The notes below the pieces were generated by a model that was not told the DNA's origin, did not search any database, and was given only the letters and a program-made list of their open reading frames with translations. DNA of 64,000 nucleotides, from NCBI GenBank assembly GCA_045046875.1, contig JASFYY010000078.1, forward strand, positions 14,383 to 78,382. Reading direction: 5' to 3'. The position numbers and the translations under genes are program-made. Of this stretch, positions 37,615 to 46,395 are shown in pieces; position 1 is the stretch's first letter, and each line of letters begins with the position of its first letter. The stretch comes from Verrucomicrobiota bacterium (lineage in GTDB: Bacteria > Verrucomicrobiota > Verrucomicrobiia > Verrucomicrobiales > DEV007).

Positions 37615-39699
37615 TCACTTTTCAATCACCAGTCCTTTATCAGGATCTGGTCTGGCGATCATCACGCTACCACCCCTTTTATCTCCTTTACCCGATCCAC
37701 GGGCGATCAGAAATCGGCCCTTCGAAATTCCGACAATTCCCATCCCGCAATCAAAATCGTAACGACCCTCGAGTTGAAAATTCTTGTCGGTTTTGAGCAA
37801 TTGTTTTCCATAACAACCAAACCACCAATGTCCGTCGTGGTAGGCCAGGGTCTGCACTCCGAGTTGGGTGTAACCACTTTTGATCACATGTTGCTCGATG
37901 AACTTGAAGTCGGGGGTGTAGCTGTAGGCGTAATTTTCCGTAATTCCTTCGGGCAATCCTCCAATCACAACAAAAATGCCGTCATGGTAAGCCATGCCGC
38001 CCGCGCCGTGAACCACTTCGGGAACGGGATGTTTCGAGATTAGAGAAAGATCATTCGCATTGTAAACATAAACCCAGGAATCCGCCCTGCCTGCAGGTTT
38101 GTTGAAGCTGCCCAGATTGACTGCCACATAAATTTTGCCGTCGTGATAACACAGATCGCCGTGATGTATAGGCACTTCGATTTTTTTGAGGACATGTCCT
38201 TTTGCGTCCGTCTTGACCAGAGTCGAGGTGAAGGGCCAATAGATCGCGCCGTTTTCATCCGTGCAGATACCTTGCAGGTGATGGCGATAGATTCCTTCGC
38301 ACTGGATGTTGTCGGGACTGTTCGTTTTCTCATAGGCACCGATGTCGTATGCTTTTCCCTGGGGTCGCGTGTTTCCATCAAAATCAGAGTTGGGAGCTTT
38401 TTCGGAGGAGCCTCTGTCGATGGCGGGAGAATCTTTTTGCAGGCGAAAATCCGCCAAGGCGGCATTGACGAATTTGGGATCACCTTTCACCGCATTTCTA
38501 CCGCGAATCCGGATCTCGGGTGCAGGGCCAAACAGGTTGTGATCCATGGTCAGGTCTGCATCTTTTAAACTGCCAAGATTGATCGCCGCTCGGCCTTTGC
38601 TGGAGAAAATGTTGTTGCGGATAGTCAAGTTCTTGAAATTTTCTTTAACTTCCGTCATGCGCACTGCCAGTTCGTTGTTGTGAAAGGTGTTGTTGATCAA
38701 GCTGATATCTTTTTTCAAATGAGTTCCCGGCTTTTCGTAATGATGAATCGAAAACCCGTGGCGGTTGTCATAGATCAGGTTGTTGTAGATTTTGATATTT
38801 GTCAGGCTGCCGCCGAGTTCGGTTGCCAGACTGATGCCACTCTTGGCGTCGTGAATGGTATTCTGGTAAATCTCGATATTTTTTCCTTCAGTGCGGCTGG
38901 AGTCGATATAAATACCCACTGCAAATTTGGTGTAAAAATCATGTACGTGGTTGTGATGGATTTTCCCATTTGTGCTACCCTCTTTGGCATCGATGCCTTC
39001 TTTGTGGATGTGATGAACGTGGTTGTTCATGATTTCGAAGCCGTTTACACCACAAAGCGAGATCGCTTCCTGACTGCCACTCATATTGGTCTCAGTGATC
39101 TCGTTACCGTCAATGACGATGTCAGAAATGCTCCAGCGAGCTTTATTGAACCAGGCATGGACGGCGCTGGAATGGCATTTTTTAAAATGATTTTTTTCAA
39201 TCGAGATGTGATTGACATTGCCTCTGATCTCGATGCCAAAATAGGCAGAGTTGGTGAAGTTCAGTTCAGAAATTTTTATATAGCTGGTGCCATTGATATG
39301 AAATAGCCCTGCCCAATTATAGGCAATGCCCGCCCCATCGATGGTGGCACGTTCGCCAGGGTAGGAGGTGTAAGTGATATAGGCTCCCGGCTTGCCGGGG
39401 TTCTTCGGGAGCACTCGTTCATTGTAGGAACCTTCTCTGATGAAAACGGTGTCGCCGGCGATCAGGGTGTCGGCGGCGTGCTGGATGCTTTTCCACGGTT
39501 TAACTTCTGAACCGGAGGCGTTGTCATTCCCCTGCGGAGAGACATAATAATCAGCGGCATTTACAAAGCCGATGCTGGTGCTTAGGAAAAGAAGAAGAGT
39601 GCAGGGCAGGCGGAGCGCCCGCCCTACAAAGGCTGTCCATGAGGCAGGGAGGATTGTAGCGCGAGCGCTTCGCTTGCCTCGATTGGGAGTGGGCATCAT
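37615..39699 (-). CDS. secreted right-handed beta-helix protein (DUF1565-like start, choice-of-anchor Q-like region) fused to a C-terminal beta-propeller-like domain
   Basis: YYVSPQGND..SGS..KPWKSIQHA; Asn-rich PbH1 repeats; DFRLQ.DSPAID.G...YDIGAYE; then HLQGI, HHGDL, HGAGG, LGVQT. Confidence 0.8.
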   Translation of the reverse strand: MMPTPNRGKRSARATILPASWTAFVGRALRLPCTLLLFLSTSIGFVNAADYYVSPQGNDNASGSEVKPWKSIQHAADTLIAGDTVFIREGSYNERVLPKNPGKPGAYITYTSYPGERATIDGAGIAYNWAGLFHINGTSYIKISELNFTNSAYFGIEIRGNVNHISIEKNHFKKCHSSAVHAWFNKARWSISDIVIDGNEITETNMSGSQEAISLCGVNGFEIMNNHVHHIHKEGIDAKEGSTNGKIHHNHVHDFYTKFAVGIYIDSSRTEGKNIEIYQNTIHDAKSGISLATELGGSLTNIKIYNNLIYDNRHGFSIHHYEKPGTHLKKDISLINNTFHNNELAVRMTEVKENFKNLTIRNNIFSSKGRAAINLGSLKDADLTMDHNLFGPAPEIRIRGRNAVKGDPKFVNAALADFRLQKDSPAIDRGSSEKAPNSDFDGNTRPQGKAYDIGAYEKTNSPDNIQCEGIYRHHLQGICTDENGAIYWPFTSTLVKTDAKGHVLKKIEVPIHHGDLCYHDGKIYVAVNLGSFNKPAGRADSWVYVYNANDLSLISKHPVPEVVHGAGGMAYHDGIFVVIGGLPEGITENYAYSYTPDFKFIEQHVIKSGYTQLGVQTLAYHDGHWWFGCYGKQLLKTDKNFQLEGRYDFDCGMGIVGISKGRFLIARGSGKGDKRGGSVMIARPDPDKGLVIEK
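39605..39678. repeat. GTAG-type REP inverted doublet inside the 5' end of a CDS
   Basis: GGCAGGCGGAGCGCCCGCCCTACAA-N24-TTGTAGCGCGAGCGCTTCGCTTGCC. Confidence 0.8.
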
Positions 39700-41255
39700 T
39701 TGGATTTTTTCTTTTTTTTGCGTGGTTTTGATTTAGGAATCACCGGTGGAGTTAGCCCGTCATCAGGCTGATTCCACAAACGATAAGGATCGTTCAAGCG
39801 GCGTTGTTCGCTGAGCAGCAGGGCTTCCATTTCGGCGAGTTTGTCAGCGTAGGCGGGATCTTCGGCGAGGTCGCGTTGGTTCTTTTTGGGAGTGTTGCCA
39901 GTGAGTTTGATGGTCGCGGGATCGTGGTGTTCGGTGAGCAATTCGTTGGGGTTCTCTGCCAGGTTGAAGAGTTGGGTCTCCCGGACGGAACCATCCATGA
40001 CGTCATATTTGATGAGTTTCCAATCGCCCTTTTTGACACTGCGCATTCCCGGCTTGGTGCCGCCGCAGTAAACGCCGTAGAGCACGTCGCGAACGATGTC
40101 TTTTTTGCCTTCGAGCACCGGTTTGAAACTGAGGCCTTCGCTGCTATCAGGTTTGCTCACTCCGGCGAGGTCACAGATCGTGCTGAGCACATCAAGCAGG
40201 TAGATGTTGCCTTTGGCGCGTGATCCCGGAGCGATGCCAGGGCCTTTGACGATGAAAGGGACACGCCAGGTGTGTTCGTAGAGGTTTTGTTTGCCTTGCA
40301 AACCGTGACGTCCGATGGCGATGCCGTGGTCGGAGGTGTAGAAGATGTATGTATTGTCGAGCTCGCCCATTTTTTTGAGTTGCTTGAGAACTCGTCCGAT
40401 CTGGTTGTCGATGTTTTCGGCGCAGGCGTACTCGCGACCGAGTTCATTGCGGATGGTGCGTTCGTCGCGATTTTTCCAGACGCCACTGACCGCTACTTCG
40501 TCGCGCAGTCCGGGGTGGCCGTGATGGAAGGGGTGTCCGGGCAGGTAGTTGACTTGCAGGGCGGGCTGTTTGGGGTTGGCGGCTGGCAGCACGTTTTTGT
40601 CGGTGTGATTGCTGGCACCGTATTTTGCCAGCAACTCGGGTGTGCCGTCGCGGGTGTCGTGCGGGTGGGAGAAGCCGTAGTAGATCAGGAAAGGTTTGCG
40701 GTCTTTTTGTTGGGCGCGATCACCGAGGTAGTCGATGATTTGTTCGCCGTGCCAGGCGCTGCCGCTTTCCGTGGTGCCGCCACGTTTGGTGGAGTCATTG
40801 CGGATGGTGAATTGTTGGTTGGCGTCTTCGTAAGAGTTGCCGTTTTTGCATGTGCGTACGGTGTCGTATCCAGCACGGTTGAAGACCGCTGCCATGGTAT
40901 GGTTGGCGAGGTCGGTGGGAACCAGTTTGGGTTTTTTGACATTCGGGTTGCTGGTGCGGCCGCGTTTGTCGGGGATGTGCCAGACGGATCGACCGGACAT
41001 GATCATGTGGCGTGACGCGGTGCAGACAGCGCCCACCCAGGAACCCATTTGATGCGCGCCATCAAAGGTCATGCCTTGTGCGGAGAGCTGGTCGAGGTTG
41101 GGGGTGTCGAGCGGAGATTTGGGGTCGTAGGCTTTTAGGTCATAGGGGGATTGATCATCGACGAGGATGAACAGAATGTTGGGGCGCTCTGCGGATAGCA
41201 GGGTGGAGAGGGATAGTTGAATTAGAAGGGCGGTGAGCAGTGTGAGGTGTTTCAT
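39696..41255 (-). CDS. sulfatase (S1 family)
   Basis: RPNILFILVDDQ; CTASRHMIMSGR; HPHD; SDHG; GKQNLYE..RVP. Confidence 0.95.
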   Translation of the reverse strand: MKHLTLLTALLIQLSLSTLLSAERPNILFILVDDQSPYDLKAYDPKSPLDTPNLDQLSAQGMTFDGAHQMGSWVGAVCTASRHMIMSGRSVWHIPDKRGRTSNPNVKKPKLVPTDLANHTMAAVFNRAGYDTVRTCKNGNSYEDANQQFTIRNDSTKRGGTTESGSAWHGEQIIDYLGDRAQQKDRKPFLIYYGFSHPHDTRDGTPELLAKYGASNHTDKNVLPAANPKQPALQVNYLPGHPFHHGHPGLRDEVAVSGVWKNRDERTIRNELGREYACAENIDNQIGRVLKQLKKMGELDNTYIFYTSDHGIAIGRHGLQGKQNLYEHTWRVPFIVKGPGIAPGSRAKGNIYLLDVLSTICDLAGVSKPDSSEGLSFKPVLEGKKDIVRDVLYGVYCGGTKPGMRSVKKGDWKLIKYDVMDGSVRETQLFNLAENPNELLTEHHDPATIKLTGNTPKKNQRDLAEDPAYADKLAEMEALLLSEQRRLNDPYRLWNQPDDGLTPPVIPKSKPRKKKKKSK

Positions 41256-41330
41256 GGTTATAATTGTTATTAAATTGGTGGGTGTGGGGGGTAATGGTTT
41301 GGCGCGGGTTGGAGGGTGGTTCGGGGGATA

Positions 41331-41353
41331 CACGGATTGCCAATCCGTGCTAC
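41331..41353. repeat. GTAG-type REP palindrome
   Basis: CACGGATTGCCAATCCGTGCTAC, related to 6962-6987 and 10577-10600. Confidence 0.65.
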
Positions 41354-41360
41354 GTGGATT

Positions 41361-42890
41361 TTAGTGACTGCGGCCGTTTTCGATCAAACTGGCGAGTTGT
41401 TTTTTTAGGCGTTGTGCAACATCCGGGTGCTGCTTGATGACGTTGTGTTTTTCCGCCGGGTCTTTTGATAAATCATAGAGTTGAAATTTTGGCACCGGCG
41501 TGTTTTCGAGTTGTTTGGCGACTTCCAGATTGCGGGTGCGTTTTTTGTCGTGACGTTGTAATTTCCAATTTCCGACAAGGAAGCCGTAATTGCCGGCGTT
41601 GCCGTTGTCTTGTTGAATGAGCGACTCACGTCCTTTGGCGTCGGCTTGTCCAAGTAAGGCGGGTAATACGTTGAAACTGTCGAGGTAGGCATTGTTAGGT
41701 ATGGGGGTTTGGGTCAGTTCAGCGAAGCTGGCAGCGAGATCGATGGTGCAGACCATTTTGTCTGATACTCCGGGTTGGATTTTGCCTTTCCAGCGAGTGA
41801 TGAAGGGGGTGCGGGTGCCGCCTTCATAAACACTGTATTTGCCGCCGGAGTAAGGACCGGATGCGCGGTGATCTCCGAGTTTTTCAATCGCAAAATCCTT
41901 GTAGCCGTCATCCATCACCGGGCCGTTGTCGGAGCAGAAAATCACCAGGGTGTTTTCTGCCAGATTGAGGCGGTCGAGGGTTTTCATCAGCTCGCCGACC
42001 CCCCAGTCGAGTTCGACGATGGCATCCCCGCGGAAGCCGAGCGGGGTTTTGCCCTGGAACCGTTCGTGCGGCATGCGCGGCACATGCAGGTCGTGTGAGG
42101 CGAAGAAGAGGAAGAAGGGTTGGTTTTTATTGGCTTCGATCCGCTCGACTGATTTCTCGACCCACTTGTCGGTGAGGTCTTCATCGCGGAAACGCGCGGC
42201 GTGACCACCGGTGTAAAACCCGATGCGGCTGATGCCGTTGTGAATGGTTGAGTTGTGTCCGTGCGACCAGTCCATTTTCAGGGTGTCGCGATGGCTGATA
42301 CCGGTCGGGTGATCCGGGCTGGGTTTTTTCTTACCGACCCACAGCGGGTCCTTGGGATCGAGATTGAGAACCCGGTGGTTCTCGACATAAACCTGGGGCA
42401 CGCGATCGTTGGTGGTGGGTAGGAGGAAGTTGTAGTCGAAGCCGATTTCGCGTGGTCCGGGTTTGAGCTCACCGTTCCAGTCAGGACCTGCTTTGCCGCC
42501 GAGTCCAAGGTGCCATTTGCCGATCACCGCGGTTTGGTAGCCTGCCTTTTTGAGCAGATCTGGCAAGGTGAAGGTGTCGGGAGGAATGATCAGCGGGCTG
42601 TTGGGGGCGGCGATGCCCTTGCCTTTTTCGCGGAAAGCGTAGGTGCCGGTGAGGAAGGAGAAGCGGGTAGGGGTGCAGGTCGAGGCCGAGCAGTAACCGC
42701 TGGTGAAGCGTTGGCCCTCGGCGGCGAGCCGGTCGATGTTGGGGGTTTTGAGCGCGGTGGCACCGTAGCAGGAAATGTCGCCGTAACCGAGGTCATCGGC
42801 CATGATGACGATGATATTGGGTTTGTCCTGGGCGGAGAGAAAATGGGTGGCAGCAAGAATCAGGCCGCAGATAGTGAGGGATAAACGCAT
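41361..42890 (-). CDS. arylsulfatase (S1, Cys-type)
   Basis: PNIIVIMADDLGYGD; CTPTRFSFLTG; GKWHLG; SDNGP; GKYSVYEGGTR. Confidence 0.95.
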   Translation of the reverse strand: MRLSLTICGLILAATHFLSAQDKPNIIVIMADDLGYGDISCYGATALKTPNIDRLAAEGQRFTSGYCSASTCTPTRFSFLTGTYAFREKGKGIAAPNSPLIIPPDTFTLPDLLKKAGYQTAVIGKWHLGLGGKAGPDWNGELKPGPREIGFDYNFLLPTTNDRVPQVYVENHRVLNLDPKDPLWVGKKKPSPDHPTGISHRDTLKMDWSHGHNSTIHNGISRIGFYTGGHAARFRDEDLTDKWVEKSVERIEANKNQPFFLFFASHDLHVPRMPHERFQGKTPLGFRGDAIVELDWGVGELMKTLDRLNLAENTLVIFCSDNGPVMDDGYKDFAIEKLGDHRASGPYSGGKYSVYEGGTRTPFITRWKGKIQPGVSDKMVCTIDLAASFAELTQTPIPNNAYLDSFNVLPALLGQADAKGRESLIQQDNGNAGNYGFLVGNWKLQRHDKKRTRNLEVAKQLENTPVPKFQLYDLSKDPAEKHNVIKQHPDVAQRLKKQLASLIENGRSH

Positions 42891-42925
42891 GGTCGCAAAG
42901 CTAGCGAAAGGTGAGGGGAATGCAA

Positions 42926-43654
42926 TTAACGTGATTGCGGAGTGGGGTTTATGTCCCGGCGGCGGCGGAGGAAACCGATGGCTCCGAGCACGGTTACGGC
43001 GAGGGCGAGAAAATGGTAGCCGCTGAAGGGGCCGAGAATACGCGGGGTGGAGCGGATGAATTCGTGGCCGAAGCGGAACAGGCCGTAAGAGATGAGGTAA
43101 AGATGGAAGTGTTGGCCGGGCAGGAGTTGTCGTCGGCGCATGAAGAAGAATATGGCGGCGGCGGTGAGATTGAAAACTAATTCAGCGAGCGGGGCGGGCC
43201 AGCGGGGGATTCCAGATTGGTCGTTTAGAGTGAACCAGGCTGGGCTGCATTTTATCCCCAGGCAGCAGCCGTGTACGAGGCAGCCGATGCGACCGGCGGC
43301 GATGCCGAGCGGCACGGCGCTGGCAAACCAGTCGCCGGTGGGTTTGGCATAACCAGTGATCCATTTGCCGAACTCAACTCCGGCGTATCCGCCGAGCAAA
43401 GCGCCGAGGACGGTTTTGCCGCTGGCGAGGTAAATGAGGAAGTGAGGGTCGCTGCGGTAGAGCCAGCTTTCGGCTGCAAGGTAGCCGATTTTTGCTCCGG
43501 CAAAAGCAGCGACGATGCCGAAGGCGTAGATTTGCATCAGGCGATGGTCATCGCGGAATTTTTTCGACCACCACAGCGCGCCGAGCAGGATGCCGCCGAG
43601 CATGATGATGAGGTAAACCGGGCTGCCGTTGCTGAGAATCTGGTGCCGGGTCAT
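42926..43654 (-). CDS. divergent prolipoprotein diacylglyceryl transferase (Lgt family paralog)
   Basis: multi-TM; GAKI; GKTVLGALLGG; GRIGCLVHGCCLG; WPAPLAE; YG.FRF..EFIR. Starts 2 bp after the rSAM stop. Confidence 0.85.
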   Translation of the reverse strand: MTRHQILSNGSPVYLIIMLGGILLGALWWSKKFRDDHRLMQIYAFGIVAAFAGAKIGYLAAESWLYRSDPHFLIYLASGKTVLGALLGGYAGVEFGKWITGYAKPTGDWFASAVPLGIAAGRIGCLVHGCCLGIKCSPAWFTLNDQSGIPRWPAPLAELVFNLTAAAIFFFMRRRQLLPGQHFHLYLISYGLFRFGHEFIRSTPRILGPFSGYHFLALAVTVLGAIGFLRRRRDINPTPQSR

Positions 43655-43656
43655 TT

Positions 43657-45000
43657 TTAAGCAGAGCTGCAGTCGGAAAATCCAGAATAATAACGGCAGA
43701 AGGAATCGAGCTTGCCATCCGGCCGGATGACATGAGTGCAGCAGCGGTCGATACGGTCGTCGTCCCAGCTTTGCGCGTCCATGAAGGGTTTGATCAGCAG
43801 GCGGAAGGTGTGCGATGCGGCGAGCTCGAATTGTTTGAGCAGCGCGCCGAGTGGTTCGGAATCGCAGCCGCAATTTTCTAGATCTTCGAGTCGGTAGCGT
43901 AGGCGGTCTGAGAGGAATCCCTGCACTTCGCTGAAATCAACGAAGTCGCTGATCGAACGGATTTGGCCGTTGATTTTGAGTAAATAACCGATGGTCGCGC
44001 AGTTGGGATCACCGCAGGGCAGGGGAGTGAAGTCGGCGCTTTTGAGTTGTCCTTGCGATTGTTCGATCGCAGAGAGGATAATGTCAGCGACGTTGAGATG
44101 AGGCGCTGGCTCTGCGTTTTCATTGGCAATGCGGCCGCTGCCAAACATGGGTTGAAAGCTGATGCCGCGCACATGAGGGTATTGCAGGCCAAATGAAATG
44201 CTGTCCCAGATTTGGTTAAGGTTATCAGGGATGACCGTCATGGCTAGAGTGACGGGTAGCTTGATTTGCTCGCAGCGCTCGATGGCGAGTTGTTTGATTT
44301 TGCGTAAGTCGGCTCCGCGCAGGGTGTGGTGACCGGTTTCTCCCGGACCGTCGTATTGTAAATAAATCTGCATGTGTCCGCGTTTCACCGCGGTGCCAAG
44401 TTGTTGTAAAAAATGGTCGTCTTTGGCGATTAAGAGGCCGTTGGTATTGATCAGGATGTAATCGATCTTGTCATGAGCGTTAGCCCATTCGAGCAATTCG
44501 AAGAACTGCGGGTGTAGAGTGGGTTCACCGCCGGACAGTTGCAGGATTTCGATGCCGCCTTTGCGTGCGATGACTCCTGAGATGCGGGTTTTGATCTCAT
44601 CGAGGGGAACGGCATCGACCGGACCGGTGAGGGAATCGGCAAAACAAGTGGGGCATTTGAGATTGCATGAATTGACGATTTCGATCAGGGCGACACAGGT
44701 GGAGAGGCGTTCGAAGGCGGCGGTTCCGGCGGAGGAAGGACTGTTGGTTGCGCAGCAGGAGCCGCTGTCGCAGCACTCATCTTTCGTGGCTGGCGAGCCG
44801 TGTGATTCCCAATAGAATTGGGAATCGGAGCTGAGCAGAGTCCATTGATCACCGTGATCGGGGCAGCTTCGTTTCATGAAAACCTGTGAGGGGGCTGCGC
44901 CGGACAACCAGACTTCGGCTGCGCATGAATCGTGGCATTCGAGGCAACGACTGCGGGTGGATTTGAGTTGCCGGGTGAGCTTGGGTGGGGTGGGTTCCAT
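43657..45000 (-). CDS. radical SAM protein, Tes/GDGT-MAS (MJ0619)-like
   Basis: N-terminal CLEC...CPDHG; CNLKCPTC; QLSGGEPTLHP; NTNG; YLQYDG; PLPCGDPNC; FMD...D..R..RCCTH......G.L.SFCRY. Confidence 0.85.
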   Translation of the reverse strand: MEPTPPKLTRQLKSTRSRCLECHDSCAAEVWLSGAAPSQVFMKRSCPDHGDQWTLLSSDSQFYWESHGSPATKDECCDSGSCCATNSPSSAGTAAFERLSTCVALIEIVNSCNLKCPTCFADSLTGPVDAVPLDEIKTRISGVIARKGGIEILQLSGGEPTLHPQFFELLEWANAHDKIDYILINTNGLLIAKDDHFLQQLGTAVKRGHMQIYLQYDGPGETGHHTLRGADLRKIKQLAIERCEQIKLPVTLAMTVIPDNLNQIWDSISFGLQYPHVRGISFQPMFGSGRIANENAEPAPHLNVADIILSAIEQSQGQLKSADFTPLPCGDPNCATIGYLLKINGQIRSISDFVDFSEVQGFLSDRLRYRLEDLENCGCDSEPLGALLKQFELAASHTFRLLIKPFMDAQSWDDDRIDRCCTHVIRPDGKLDSFCRYYSGFSDCSSA

Positions 45001-45013
45001 GTGATAAGGGCAA

Positions 45014-45358
45014 TTAAAAACTACCGATAAGGCATCCGCCTATTCCCAGAGCGAATGCTGTAATAGAGCATAGAATGAAATACGTGAGGCTTCCAGAAAC
45101 GGCCAATGCCAGAGATGTCGATGGGTTTATTCGTGAGAGGTGCCAAGAGCATATAGCACCTGCAAACAGTGGGACGAAATATAAGAGTGCATTCATTTTA
45201 GTAGAAAATTCTGAATCCCAGTCCAGCGGTGACAACCATCCTGGCATAAAAAACATCATTAATAGGGCAGGCGTGAATAAACTGCCAAAAAAAATCCAGT
45301 AGTTGAAACTCGGTGAGGATTTTTTAGTTGGCGGGGGAAGAGGCTGTTCTGAATTCAT
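45014..45358 (-). CDS. small 3-TM membrane protein with C-terminal GGC-x5 (candidate substrate B)
   Basis: 114 aa; Pro-rich N-terminus; ends ALGIGGCLIGSF; paralog of 45441-45779. Confidence 0.75.
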   Translation of the reverse strand: MNSEQPLPPPTKKSSPSFNYWIFFGSLFTPALLMMFFMPGWLSPLDWDSEFSTKMNALLYFVPLFAGAICSWHLSRINPSTSLALAVSGSLTYFILCSITAFALGIGGCLIGSF

Positions 45359-45440
45359 GATGGTAGGAGGTCACTTATACGATAGAGACTATCAAACAAA
45401 CCACTTCAAGGGCAAACGCAACGGTGTGACATAGCAGGAT

Positions 45441-45779
45441 CTAACTAATAGCTATGATACATCCACCGAAACTGAGAGCCCCTGCTCCTAACGTTGATGC
45501 AACAAAAAGTCCAAGTCCGGTGAAAAATTTCTTTGTGGGAGAAAGGGATTGACGGGAACGCATTAGGATTTCGCAGCAGAAAGCGCCCGCTACTATCGAC
45601 ATCAGAAAGCATAGAAGCATTAAATTGAGAGCGACGGTGAGTTGATCGCCTTTCATGAAGAGTTTGAGAATTAAGGTTATTACTCCAGGTGCGAGCATAA
45701 ACATGAAAAACAGTCGAGGGCTGTATGGCGGGTTGTTTGGGTTTTTATCAGGTGGCTGAGTAGGGATGTTTGTATCCAT
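45441..45779 (-). CDS. small 3-TM membrane protein with C-terminal GGC-x5 (candidate substrate A)
   Basis: 112 aa; Pro-rich N-terminus; ends ALSFGGCIIAIS; leaderless promoter TTGCCC-N18-TAGCAT-N6-ATG. Confidence 0.75.
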   Translation of the reverse strand: MDTNIPTQPPDKNPNNPPYSPRLFFMFMLAPGVITLILKLFMKGDQLTVALNLMLLCFLMSIVAGAFCCEILMRSRQSLSPTKKFFTGLGLFVASTLGAGALSFGGCIIAIS

Positions 45780-45969
45780 GCAGGGATGCTAACAAAGCGA
45801 GGGTGAAAGGGGCAATCGTTTATCTCGATGGTTTTATCGCTTAGAGTGATGGCCTTGTTTTCTTAATCCGAGAAGAGTTGTTTTTCCTCTTTTCATCTGG
45901 AAAAACCCGATTACATATATCGCGCGGCGTAAAAAACAGGCGCGGCGACCATTTTTATCTGTAAATATT

Positions 45970-46395
45970 ATGTCTTTAGAAACCACACTTATCCTTCTCA
46001 AACCTGACTGCGTGACCAAATCTTTGTGCGGAGAGGTGATCAAGCGTTTTGAAGCCGAGGGTTTCAAAATTCGCGGAACGAAGATGATCAAGATGTCCGA
46101 TGCGTTGTTGAATGAACATTACGCGCATATTTCCGACAAACCGTTTTTCCCCAGTGTGGTTGAGTTCATGACTTCGTCGCCAATCATCGCCATGGCTTTG
46201 GACGGTGAGGATGTGATCGGTCGCGTGCGTGATTTGCTCGGGCCGACGGATTCGACCAAAGCGGATGCGGGAACGATTCGCGGTGATCTCGGTGTTGATA
46301 CCCAGAACAATGTTTGTCACGCTTCTGATTCTCAGGAATCGGCTGAAGTTGAGCTGAAGCGCTTTTTTAACGAAGGCGAGCTTTTTTCATACTAA
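45970..46395 (+). CDS. ndk: nucleoside diphosphate kinase
   Basis: TLILLKPD; HYAH...KPFF; GTIRGD; NVCHASDS. Confidence 0.97.
   Translation: MSLETTLILLKPDCVTKSLCGEVIKRFEAEGFKIRGTKMIKMSDALLNEHYAHISDKPFFPSVVEFMTSSPIIAMALDGEDVIGRVRDLLGPTDSTKADAGTIRGDLGVDTQNNVCHASDSQESAEVELKRFFNEGELFSY

Follow-up and report, generated by a model that had tools for sequence, protein, structure and literature searches.

In a 64,000-nucleotide stretch of DNA from a Verrucomicrobiota bacterium (assembly GCA_045046875.1, contig JASFYY010000078.1, positions 14,383 to 78,382 of the forward strand; hereafter the window), four adjacent genes on the minus strand form a cassette suggestive of a so far undescribed mode of lipid attachment close to a protein's end. 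The cassette encodes two small membrane proteins, A and B, a radical S-adenosylmethionine (SAM) enzyme (rSAM), and a divergent paralog of the lipoprotein-modifying enzyme Lgt. Its components, with the evidence on which each assignment is based, are as follows.

45441..45779, minus strand: small membrane protein A, 112 aa, with a Pro-rich N-terminal tail and three transmembrane (TM) helices, ending ..ALSFGGC107-IIAIS (open reading frame [ORF] and sequence)
45014..45358, minus strand: small membrane protein B (114 aa), paralogous to A and ending ..ALGIGGC109-LIGSF (ORF and BLASTP)
43657..45000, minus strand: rSAM, 447 aa, of the Tes/GDGT-MAS/TrsS superfamily (Pfam, NCBIfam and PDB matches)
42926..43654, minus strand: divergent Lgt paralog, 242 aa, with a shortened periplasmic head (PF01790, alignment to 5AZB, model)
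45780..45852, no strand: non-coding stretch upstream of A, missing in a genome of the same genus (G005) together with the four genes (deletion boundaries)

The genes are closely spaced, with gaps of 82, 13, and 2 nt between A and B, B and rSAM, and rSAM and the Lgt paralog. A and B share 27% identity (BLASTP, E=3e-9), and the residues identical in both by pairwise MAFFT alignment include, in A numbering, P31, A64-G65-A66, C68, A101-L102, and G105-G106-C107. An AlphaFold2 model of A built with 42 homologues (mean pLDDT 82.4) has helices at residues 21-41, 46-75, and 81-111, with C107 placed four residues short of the end of the last helix; a basic patch, RSRQSLSPTKK, lies between helices 2 and 3. 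These results bear out a preliminary description of this DNA, which had taken the two ORFs for diverged paralogs of a common three-helix architecture. The C107 codon of A occupies 45459-45461 and is followed by IIAIS, and the C109 codon of B occupies 45032-45034 and is followed by LIGSF. Neither protein has any Pfam or NCBIfam match.

A word-indexed homology search with A alone returned no match, a limit of sensitivity, because a family profile later gave 269 representatives. Six-frame profile searches of related genomes recovered homologues, and an alignment of 42 family sequences (A3) searched against 1.84 billion representative proteins yielded 269 representatives at E<=1e-3, 44 of them reaching E<=1e-10; A itself is scored by the family profile at E=2.1e-20 or 5.4e-19. 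All matches listed are 68-238 aa long and align up to their own C-termini, and [GAS]C is found within the last 26 residues of all 150 representatives listed. In a profile alignment of 192 sequences, comprising the 42 from loci and these 150 representatives, the Cys is kept in 191 members, the lone exception being an alignment slip. Counting from this Cys, position -1 is Gly in 187 members (98%), -2 is Gly or Ala in 142 (G 80, A 62) and Val in 18, and -3 is Phe in 102 and Val, Leu, Met, or Ile in about 47. This Gly-Cys pattern is far beyond chance. Loss of the motif from homologues had been named beforehand as one of the findings that would refute the original proposal, and the homologues have instead kept it. 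The tail following the Cys is short and near neutral, with 4-21 residues and mostly 5-12; the placement of the Cys sixth from the C-terminus, described as exact for A and B, is correct for these two proteins and does not extend across the family.

Ahead of the Cys, positions -42 to -22 carry an average net charge of +2.4, with a net positive charge in 94% of 191 members, and the succession of a basic segment, a hydrophobic helix, and F-[GA]-G-C is a family-wide pattern. The earlier comparison of TM3 with an internal lipoprotein signal peptide therefore holds well beyond A. Conservation elsewhere is limited to a few helix residues: the TM1 Pro is kept in 177 of the 179 members having TM1, and two Gly of TM2 are kept in 141 and 161 of 192. 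The shared TM2 motif AGA(F/I)C noted in the preliminary description survives only in part, with [AS]-G kept in 161 of 192 members and its Cys in only 90. A subset of tails ends with aromatic-x-[LMV]-N-[FI]-H; 18 of 191 members end in [NS]-x-H and 27 of 191 in His, an ending absent from A and B. In some lineages, a CxxC..CxxC zinc-ribbon-like N-terminal segment precedes the TM helices of the mini-proteins (L065 3350-3993, L069 1885-2346, and L096 2497-2955), and for L065, the one looked at, Pfam matches are below threshold.

The bodies that carry this site are variable, as had been proposed. At the matching positions in a sister genome, the orthologues share only 31% (A) and 43% (B) identity with the window's proteins, versus 83% for rSAM. 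The ratio of nonsynonymous to synonymous substitution rates (dN/dS) is 0.14-0.34 for the small genes in eight gene pairs with unsaturated dS, indicating translated genes that are under purifying selection and evolve fast; for the adjacent rSAM it is 0.03-0.11, measurable in seven of those eight pairs. The small genes are present in one to four copies per locus. They are also more AT-rich than the rSAM and Lgt paralog genes, another early impression that the base composition confirms: GC is 0.42-0.46 over 45000-45900 versus 0.51-0.61 over the two enzyme genes, and GC at third codon positions (GC3) is 0.43 for A, 0.41 for B, 0.63 for rSAM, and 0.73 for the Lgt paralog. In relatives, GC3 of the small genes lies below that of the rSAM neighbor 34 times out of 39, and the difference averages -0.08.

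Family members also occur outside the cassette. One orphan of 129 aa, ending ..ALSFGGCLLGAGLSDAFRH, is found at L007 1471-1860 on contig 38 of genome G022, where it adjoins a sodium:solute symporter-like gene; the G022 cassette is far off, on contig 15. Further orphan members are present in G104, G097, and G082. In a 401-genome phylum-wide sample, the A3 profile at E<=1e-5 found one match besides the window's genome, with only 12 candidates scored per genome and with a profile that misses more diverged mini-proteins of other families; the result tells little about how widely the family occurs.

The Lgt paralog passes the Pfam model PF01790 (87.5 bits versus a cut-off of 24.9) and reaches only 40.9 bits against TIGR00544 (cut-off 118.9), with other Lgt equivalogs also far under cut-off; by sequence, it is a member of the superfamily without equivalog status. 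The genome encodes a canonical Lgt elsewhere (212 bits), as well as LspA, so the paralog is an extra enzyme. Its structural model (pLDDT 91.8) has E. coli Lgt 5AZB as the only significant PDB fold match (E=9.5e-7, probability 1.00, TMq 0.61), and hhalign aligns it to the genome's own Lgt with a probability of 94.4%. As modeled, the paralog has the seven-TM fold of Lgt, with a periplasmic head of about half the canonical length. All 29 paralogs aligned have R122, G133, Y190, and R194, the equivalents of R143, G154, Y235, and R239 of E. coli Lgt, and at least 90% of them have E198 (E243); the buried hydrogen-bond network of Y235, R239, and E243 is retained. The Lgt signature G142-RLGNFINGELWG-154 is only partly kept, with R143 and G154 present and N146 and E151 replaced. 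Across 35 loci examined, N146 has become Cys in 32 of 32 paralogs with a match and E151 in 30 of 32. In the window these form part of the motif GRIGC125LVHGC130C131LGIKC135, and GR[IL]GC..[HY]GCC[LP]G..C recurs in every Verrucomicrobial paralog examined and in the one from the Armatimonadota, while the paralogs of Methylacidiphilum and Hamadaea retain only the first Cys of the cluster. The basic C-terminal tail of the paralog fits the Lgt topology, which would put the active site on the same side as the predicted location of the mini-protein Cys, the outer leaflet.

A longer, 315-aa form of the Lgt ORF with a TTG start (42926-43873) was rejected, as homologues align from the ATG at 43654. The TTG start at 43873 would overlap the rSAM gene by 217 nt, and the first 73 residues of this longer ORF (43655-43873) come from reading the conserved rSAM C-terminus in a shadow frame.

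The rSAM matches PF04055 (E=5.6e-15) and PF23545 (E=3.8e-10; an HMPTM-type N-terminal Zn ribbon, rubredoxin-like), and carries the radical SAM motif CNLKCPTC and a Cys-rich C-terminus. Its best NCBIfam match, over the full length, is TrsS (NF045646; 234.9 bits versus a cut-off of 490), and it scores 168.7 bits against Tes (NF045702; cut-off 450). These scores lie under the equivalog cut-offs, and the rSAM is therefore not a member of Tes. Its best PDB match is GDGT-MAS (7TOL/7TOM; E=1.7e-37), a partial match over residues 12-335 and 393-438, and its C-terminal RCCTHVIRPDGKLDSFCRYY aligns to 7TOL residues 446-493 with a shared RCC..H..PD..FC motif. GDGT-MAS is described as joining lipid tail ends by C-C bonds via a carbon-sulfur intermediate on an Fe-S cluster (PMC9433317). 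The window rSAM gene contains no in-frame TGA. The rSAM of locus L040 (genome G036, about 566-1933) has one in-frame TGA at the N-terminal ribbon; a selenocysteine reading was rejected, as the TGA falls at a variable, non-Cys position in a degraded-looking copy. The small ORF upstream of it lacks TM1 and TM2 and no start was found for its Lgt paralog, and L040 probably represents gene decay, not a selenoprotein.

The mini-protein, rSAM, and Lgt paralog genes are consistently found together, as the preliminary description had expected. Among 134 genomes of the window's taxonomic family, an rSAM orthologue was found in 43 and the small-protein profile in 34, with both in 31, the small protein only in 3, and the rSAM only in 12; several genomes with only one of the two are contig-end or low-completeness cases. 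Of the family's 30 best rSAM loci, 27 have the Lgt paralog directly downstream of rSAM; two others are cut by contig ends, and L051 is without the paralog. Between one and four motif-bearing small ORFs lie directly upstream of rSAM in 27 of the 30 by script, and in L044 by eye. The trio is also present in metagenome-assembled genomes (MAGs) of an uncultured member of the Verrucomicrobiae, of the Chthoniobacteraceae, and of the Armatimonadota. In Methylacidiphilum sp. the order is Lgt-small-rSAM, in the actinobacterium Hamadaea sp., whose rSAM is only 31% identical, it is small-Lgt-rSAM, and in three metagenome loci (L081, L096, and L098) it is small-rSAM-small-Lgt. Trio synteny thus spans three phyla. 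A Bacteroidetes match at 28% lacks both partners. Pedosphaera parvula Ellin514, a candidate cultured carrier, encodes an rSAM with 60% identity (P0234/WP_007413295.1).

The cassette is also lost as a whole. The genome G005, of the same genus, has flanks 95% and 90% identical to those in the window and lacks exactly window 42941-45852, a segment made up of the four genes plus the 73 nt that precede A; the boundaries fall at 42940/42941 and 45852/45853, and about 15 nt of the 3' end of the Lgt paralog remain. As the four genes are absent together, they behave as one unit. The non-coding stretch at 45780-45852 presumably carries the cassette promoter; in scans of 42700-46100, both promoters (3 versus 2.7 expected) and terminators (4 versus 3.7 expected) were at chance level. 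No RNA run was listed as containing window 42926-45900, and two runs of a single study contain this DNA as contigs. Upstream of the cassette lies a divergent gene for nucleoside diphosphate kinase (NDK). Immediately downstream are two genes (window 39696-42890) for sulfatases that have signal peptides; they are kept in G005 and are therefore outside the cassette. In G005 and in G003, a sister genome of the same genus, an opposite-strand membrane ORF of 125/126 aa lies between NDK and the cassette site (L073 2726-3156 and L008 944-1324): G005 has this ORF where the missing cassette would be, G003 has both, and the window has the cassette and only the 3' end of the ORF (45853-45890). The small genes of one genus have immediately upstream, on their own strand, a gene for polyprenyl synthetase (PF00348, E about 1e-44; e.g., L047 3352-4332, minus strand; L050 18-1208, plus strand), an arrangement that could be plain synteny or a hint of an isoprenoid donor. 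Neither the window nor other genera have this gene, the latter having different neighbors upstream, and it was rejected as a core part of the system.

Fusions provide a further view of the Lgt paralog. A search for it among proteins longer than 424 aa listed 16 proteins, of which 11 (among P0272-P0283) are fused to a beta-lactamase-family serine hydrolase (PF00144); fusions to a CPBP/CAAX-type protease domain (PF02517; P0276) and to an amidohydrolase (PF04909; P0284) occur in one cluster each. In P0272, the only PF00144 fusion whose sequence was read, an extra hydrophobic segment precedes the hydrolase, so this domain should be periplasmic. The PF00144 fusion occurs within the same cassette in L081 (5073-6837) and L090 (1042-2803). 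Two apparent fusions to rSAM enzymes were rejected: P0271 (693 aa, Lgt plus rSAM) is a frameshift read into the frame shadowing the rSAM 3' end, and P0285 combines a different rSAM with no more than half an Lgt paralog. The top 120 rSAM homologues include no fusion.

The cassette can be compared with the bacterial lipoprotein pathway (Lgt, 5AZB/5AZC, PF01790; LspA; Lnt). Common to both are a basic n-region, a hydrophobic helix, a small-small-Cys motif, and an Lgt-fold enzyme with an outer-leaflet active site, and the paralog keeps R143, G154, Y235, R239, and E243. In contrast to prolipoproteins, the mini-proteins lack the arrangement of an N-terminal signal followed by a mature domain; their signal is the last of two to three TM helices, with only 4-21 residues after the Cys, Phe mostly at -3, and Gly at -1 in 98% of members. 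The paralog differs from Lgt in its length of 242 aa, its lack of H103, a head domain of about half the size, and its constant pairing with a radical SAM enzyme. The lipobox consensus is given as [LVI][ASTVI][GAS]C in PMC12462473, and the family's Gly at -1 and Ala at -2 fall within it while Gly at -2 and Phe at -3 fall outside.

The rSAM likewise aligns with Tes/GDGT-MAS (M. jannaschii MJ0619, 7TOL/7TOM, NF045702) in its rubredoxin-like ribbon, radical SAM core, and C-terminal motif, but it is sub-cut-off, bacterial, and encoded with an Lgt paralog and Cys-bearing mini-proteins. We know of no tetraether lipids from the window's lineage. TrsS, the best NCBIfam match and often a selenoprotein, differs in that the rSAM is below its cut-off and has no selenocysteine; in print, TrsS was found only as a table entry, in PMC13188914. 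Eukaryotic CAAX processing (Rce1/CPBP) offers an analogy in the proposed thioether-bearing Cys near the C-terminus followed by aliphatic residues, and one fusion is to a CPBP domain (PF02517). Unlike CAAX proteins, which have three residues after the Cys, the mini-proteins have 4-21 (five in A and B), their Cys lies in a TM helix and is predicted at the outer face, and the candidate transferase is Lgt-like rather than a prenyltransferase. The tandem, fast-evolving small genes with one conserved site beside a radical SAM enzyme also recall systems for ribosomally synthesized and post-translationally modified peptides (RiPPs). However, the "precursors" here would be membrane proteins of polytopic architecture, the rSAM falls in the lipid-acting Tes clade and not among the SPASM or RiPP recognition element (RRE) maturases, and the window cassette has no RRE, transporter, or leader peptidase.

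We estimate a probability of roughly 0.5, judging from sequence, that A and B are dedicated acceptors S-lipidated on their Cys by the Lgt paralog, with the rSAM remodeling the lipid. This is the reading we prefer because the invariant Cys, its signal-like context, the variable copy number, the fast-evolving bodies, the retained Lgt core, and the obligate pairing of the genes all fit it. Each mini-protein would have a cytoplasmic N-terminus and a basic loop leading into the last helix, placing the Gly-Cys at the outer-leaflet end of that helix, in a setting like that of a lipoprotein signal but at the C-terminal end of a polytopic mini-protein. In A, residues 1 and 78 would lie inside and residue 112 outside. 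The Lgt paralog would then put a glyceryl-lipid or a related lipid on the Cys thiol as a thioether. Then or beforehand, the Tes/GDGT-MAS-like rSAM, presumably acting in the cytoplasm, may remodel the lipid part, by analogy through C-C coupling at the ends of alkyl tails; suggested by homology, this is the weakest step of the scheme. In some lineages, the periplasmic serine hydrolase fused to the paralog may trim the short tail.

Several observations weigh against this scheme. H103 of the HGGL motif is gone: there is no His in the aligned segment GKTVLGALLGGY, and H103 aligns to Leu (phmmer) or Gly (hhalign). In E. coli Lgt, according to PMC4728403, HGGL has been proposed to bind the lipobox, E151, a proposed substrate filter, binds phosphatidylglycerol at the glycerol head group, and the H103A/N/Q/R/Y and E151A/Q mutants are inactive. 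With H103 lost and E151, like N146, replaced by Cys, acceptor recognition and the donor lipid are probably unlike those of housekeeping Lgt, and the paralog, lacking essential residues, may not transfer diacylglyceryl to Cys at all. On the acceptor side, Phe at -3 and the frequent Gly at -2 depart from the classical lipobox set, and the residues after the Cys are hydrophobic, unlike those of mature lipoproteins. A radical SAM enzyme needs cytoplasmic reductant and SAM, and with the Cys predicted outside, a direct reaction between rSAM and Cys is hard to picture. The linkage also has gaps, as about 12 of the 43 rSAM genomes have no profile-detected small protein, some of them being contig-end cases, and L051 and L057 have PhoU upstream of rSAM in place of small ORFs. 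Complex prediction for the Lgt paralog and A, both supplied as alignments, gave 0.30 and 0.14 versus a mark of 0.32, without controls, and speaks neither for nor against binding.

A more specific form of the preferred reading, which we put forward as possible but doubtful, is a protein-lipid conjugate in which the paralog would link a glycerolipid to the Cys by a thioether and the rSAM would weld tail ends, making the anchor membrane-spanning or cyclized. The donor in such a conjugate might not be phosphatidylglycerol, because the head-group filter E151 is replaced. The weld could run tail-to-tail, giving a macrocycle, or to a lipid of the opposite leaflet, and the periplasmic hydrolase of some lineages would clip the tail in a CAAX-like manner.

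The nearest characterized relative of the rSAM acts on free lipids (PMC9433317), and PMC8941075 hypothesizes that bacterial Tes homologues make membrane-spanning lipids. The cassette might thus remodel bulk membrane lipids by tail-to-tail coupling, with the mini-proteins as membrane subunits or scaffolds rather than substrates, their Cys pairing as a disulfide or metal ligand with the periplasmic C-x4-CC-x3-C loop of the paralog. Such a role would account for the loss of the proposed peptide-binding H103 and for the Cys cluster conserved beside the active site in all Verrucomicrobial and Armatimonadota paralogs examined. We nevertheless consider it unlikely, as obligate subunits usually hold their stoichiometry and co-evolve with their partners, whereas the mini-proteins vary from one to four copies, occur as orphans, have a dN 3-10 times that of the enzymes, and are conserved only at the Gly-Cys site and a few helix residues. 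Moreover, the paralogs of Methylacidiphilum and Hamadaea have only the first Cys of the cluster, and a Cys-bearing mini-protein is still present beside them.

These same variable bodies with a single conserved site, arranged in tandem arrays, would be expected of precursors of a ribosomal lipopeptide, in which a peptidase cuts before the lipidated Cys to free an S-lipidated peptide of 5-20 residues and the body of two to three TM helices serves as a leader. The peptidase could be LspA, which is present, or a fused PF00144, CPBP, or amidohydrolase domain; alternatively, CAAX-like clipping could occur after the Cys. The PF00144 fusions (11 of the 16 longer proteins listed, two of them within cassettes in L081 and L090, with the domain predicted to be periplasmic in P0272), the single CPBP/CAAX-type and amidohydrolase clusters, and the end motif shared by a subset of tails (18 of 191 with [NS]-x-H, 27 of 191 with His) are all consistent with such processing. 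The conserved Pro of TM1 and Gly residues of TM2 (177 of 179, and 141 and 161 of 192) would be unusual for a mere leader, though, the window cassette has no hydrolase gene, and the tails vary widely in sequence and in length (4-21 residues as opposed to the strict three of CAAX), making this origin rather improbable. Finally, the motif is short and Gly-Cys arises easily in hydrophobic helices, and the complex prediction gave no verdict (0.30 and 0.14 against 0.32, no controls), so the mini-proteins might be ordinary membrane proteins with a lipobox look-alike, brought beside unrelated enzymes by an accident of operon structure and lipidated, if at all, by the housekeeping Lgt. A Cys invariant in 191 of 192 members of a family of 269 or more database clusters, linkage over three phyla despite the shuffled gene orders of Hamadaea and Methylacidiphilum, and the joint loss of all four genes leave very little room for such a coincidence, which is already disfavoured.

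Bacterial Tes homologues have appeared in print in some number, with 456 in PMC8941075 and 281 MAGs in PMC11868695. In the available parts of both papers they are discussed only as untested candidates for the synthesis of brGDGTs (glycerol dialkyl glycerol tetraethers of the branched type), and they serve, likewise untested, as genomic markers for producers of these lipids, a palaeoclimate proxy. Acidobacteria are among the brGDGT candidates proposed in PMC8941075. The word "diacylglyceryl" is absent from that paper. A full-text search, with most subscription journals and supplements outside its reach, found no published description of the system and no link of Lgt with Tes-like enzymes.

Lipoprotein lipidation is taught as a single pathway acting on N-terminal signals. 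If S-lipidation of the mini-proteins by the Lgt paralog is correct, a dedicated Lgt-type enzyme, substrates with C-terminal signals, and an rSAM partner would together constitute a new branch of bacterial protein lipidation. It would also provide the first functional handle on the bacterial Tes homologues, and if the protein-lipid conjugate is formed, many of those now counted as candidate brGDGT synthases would belong to protein lipidation instead. With only four genes, the system is small and should be directly testable.

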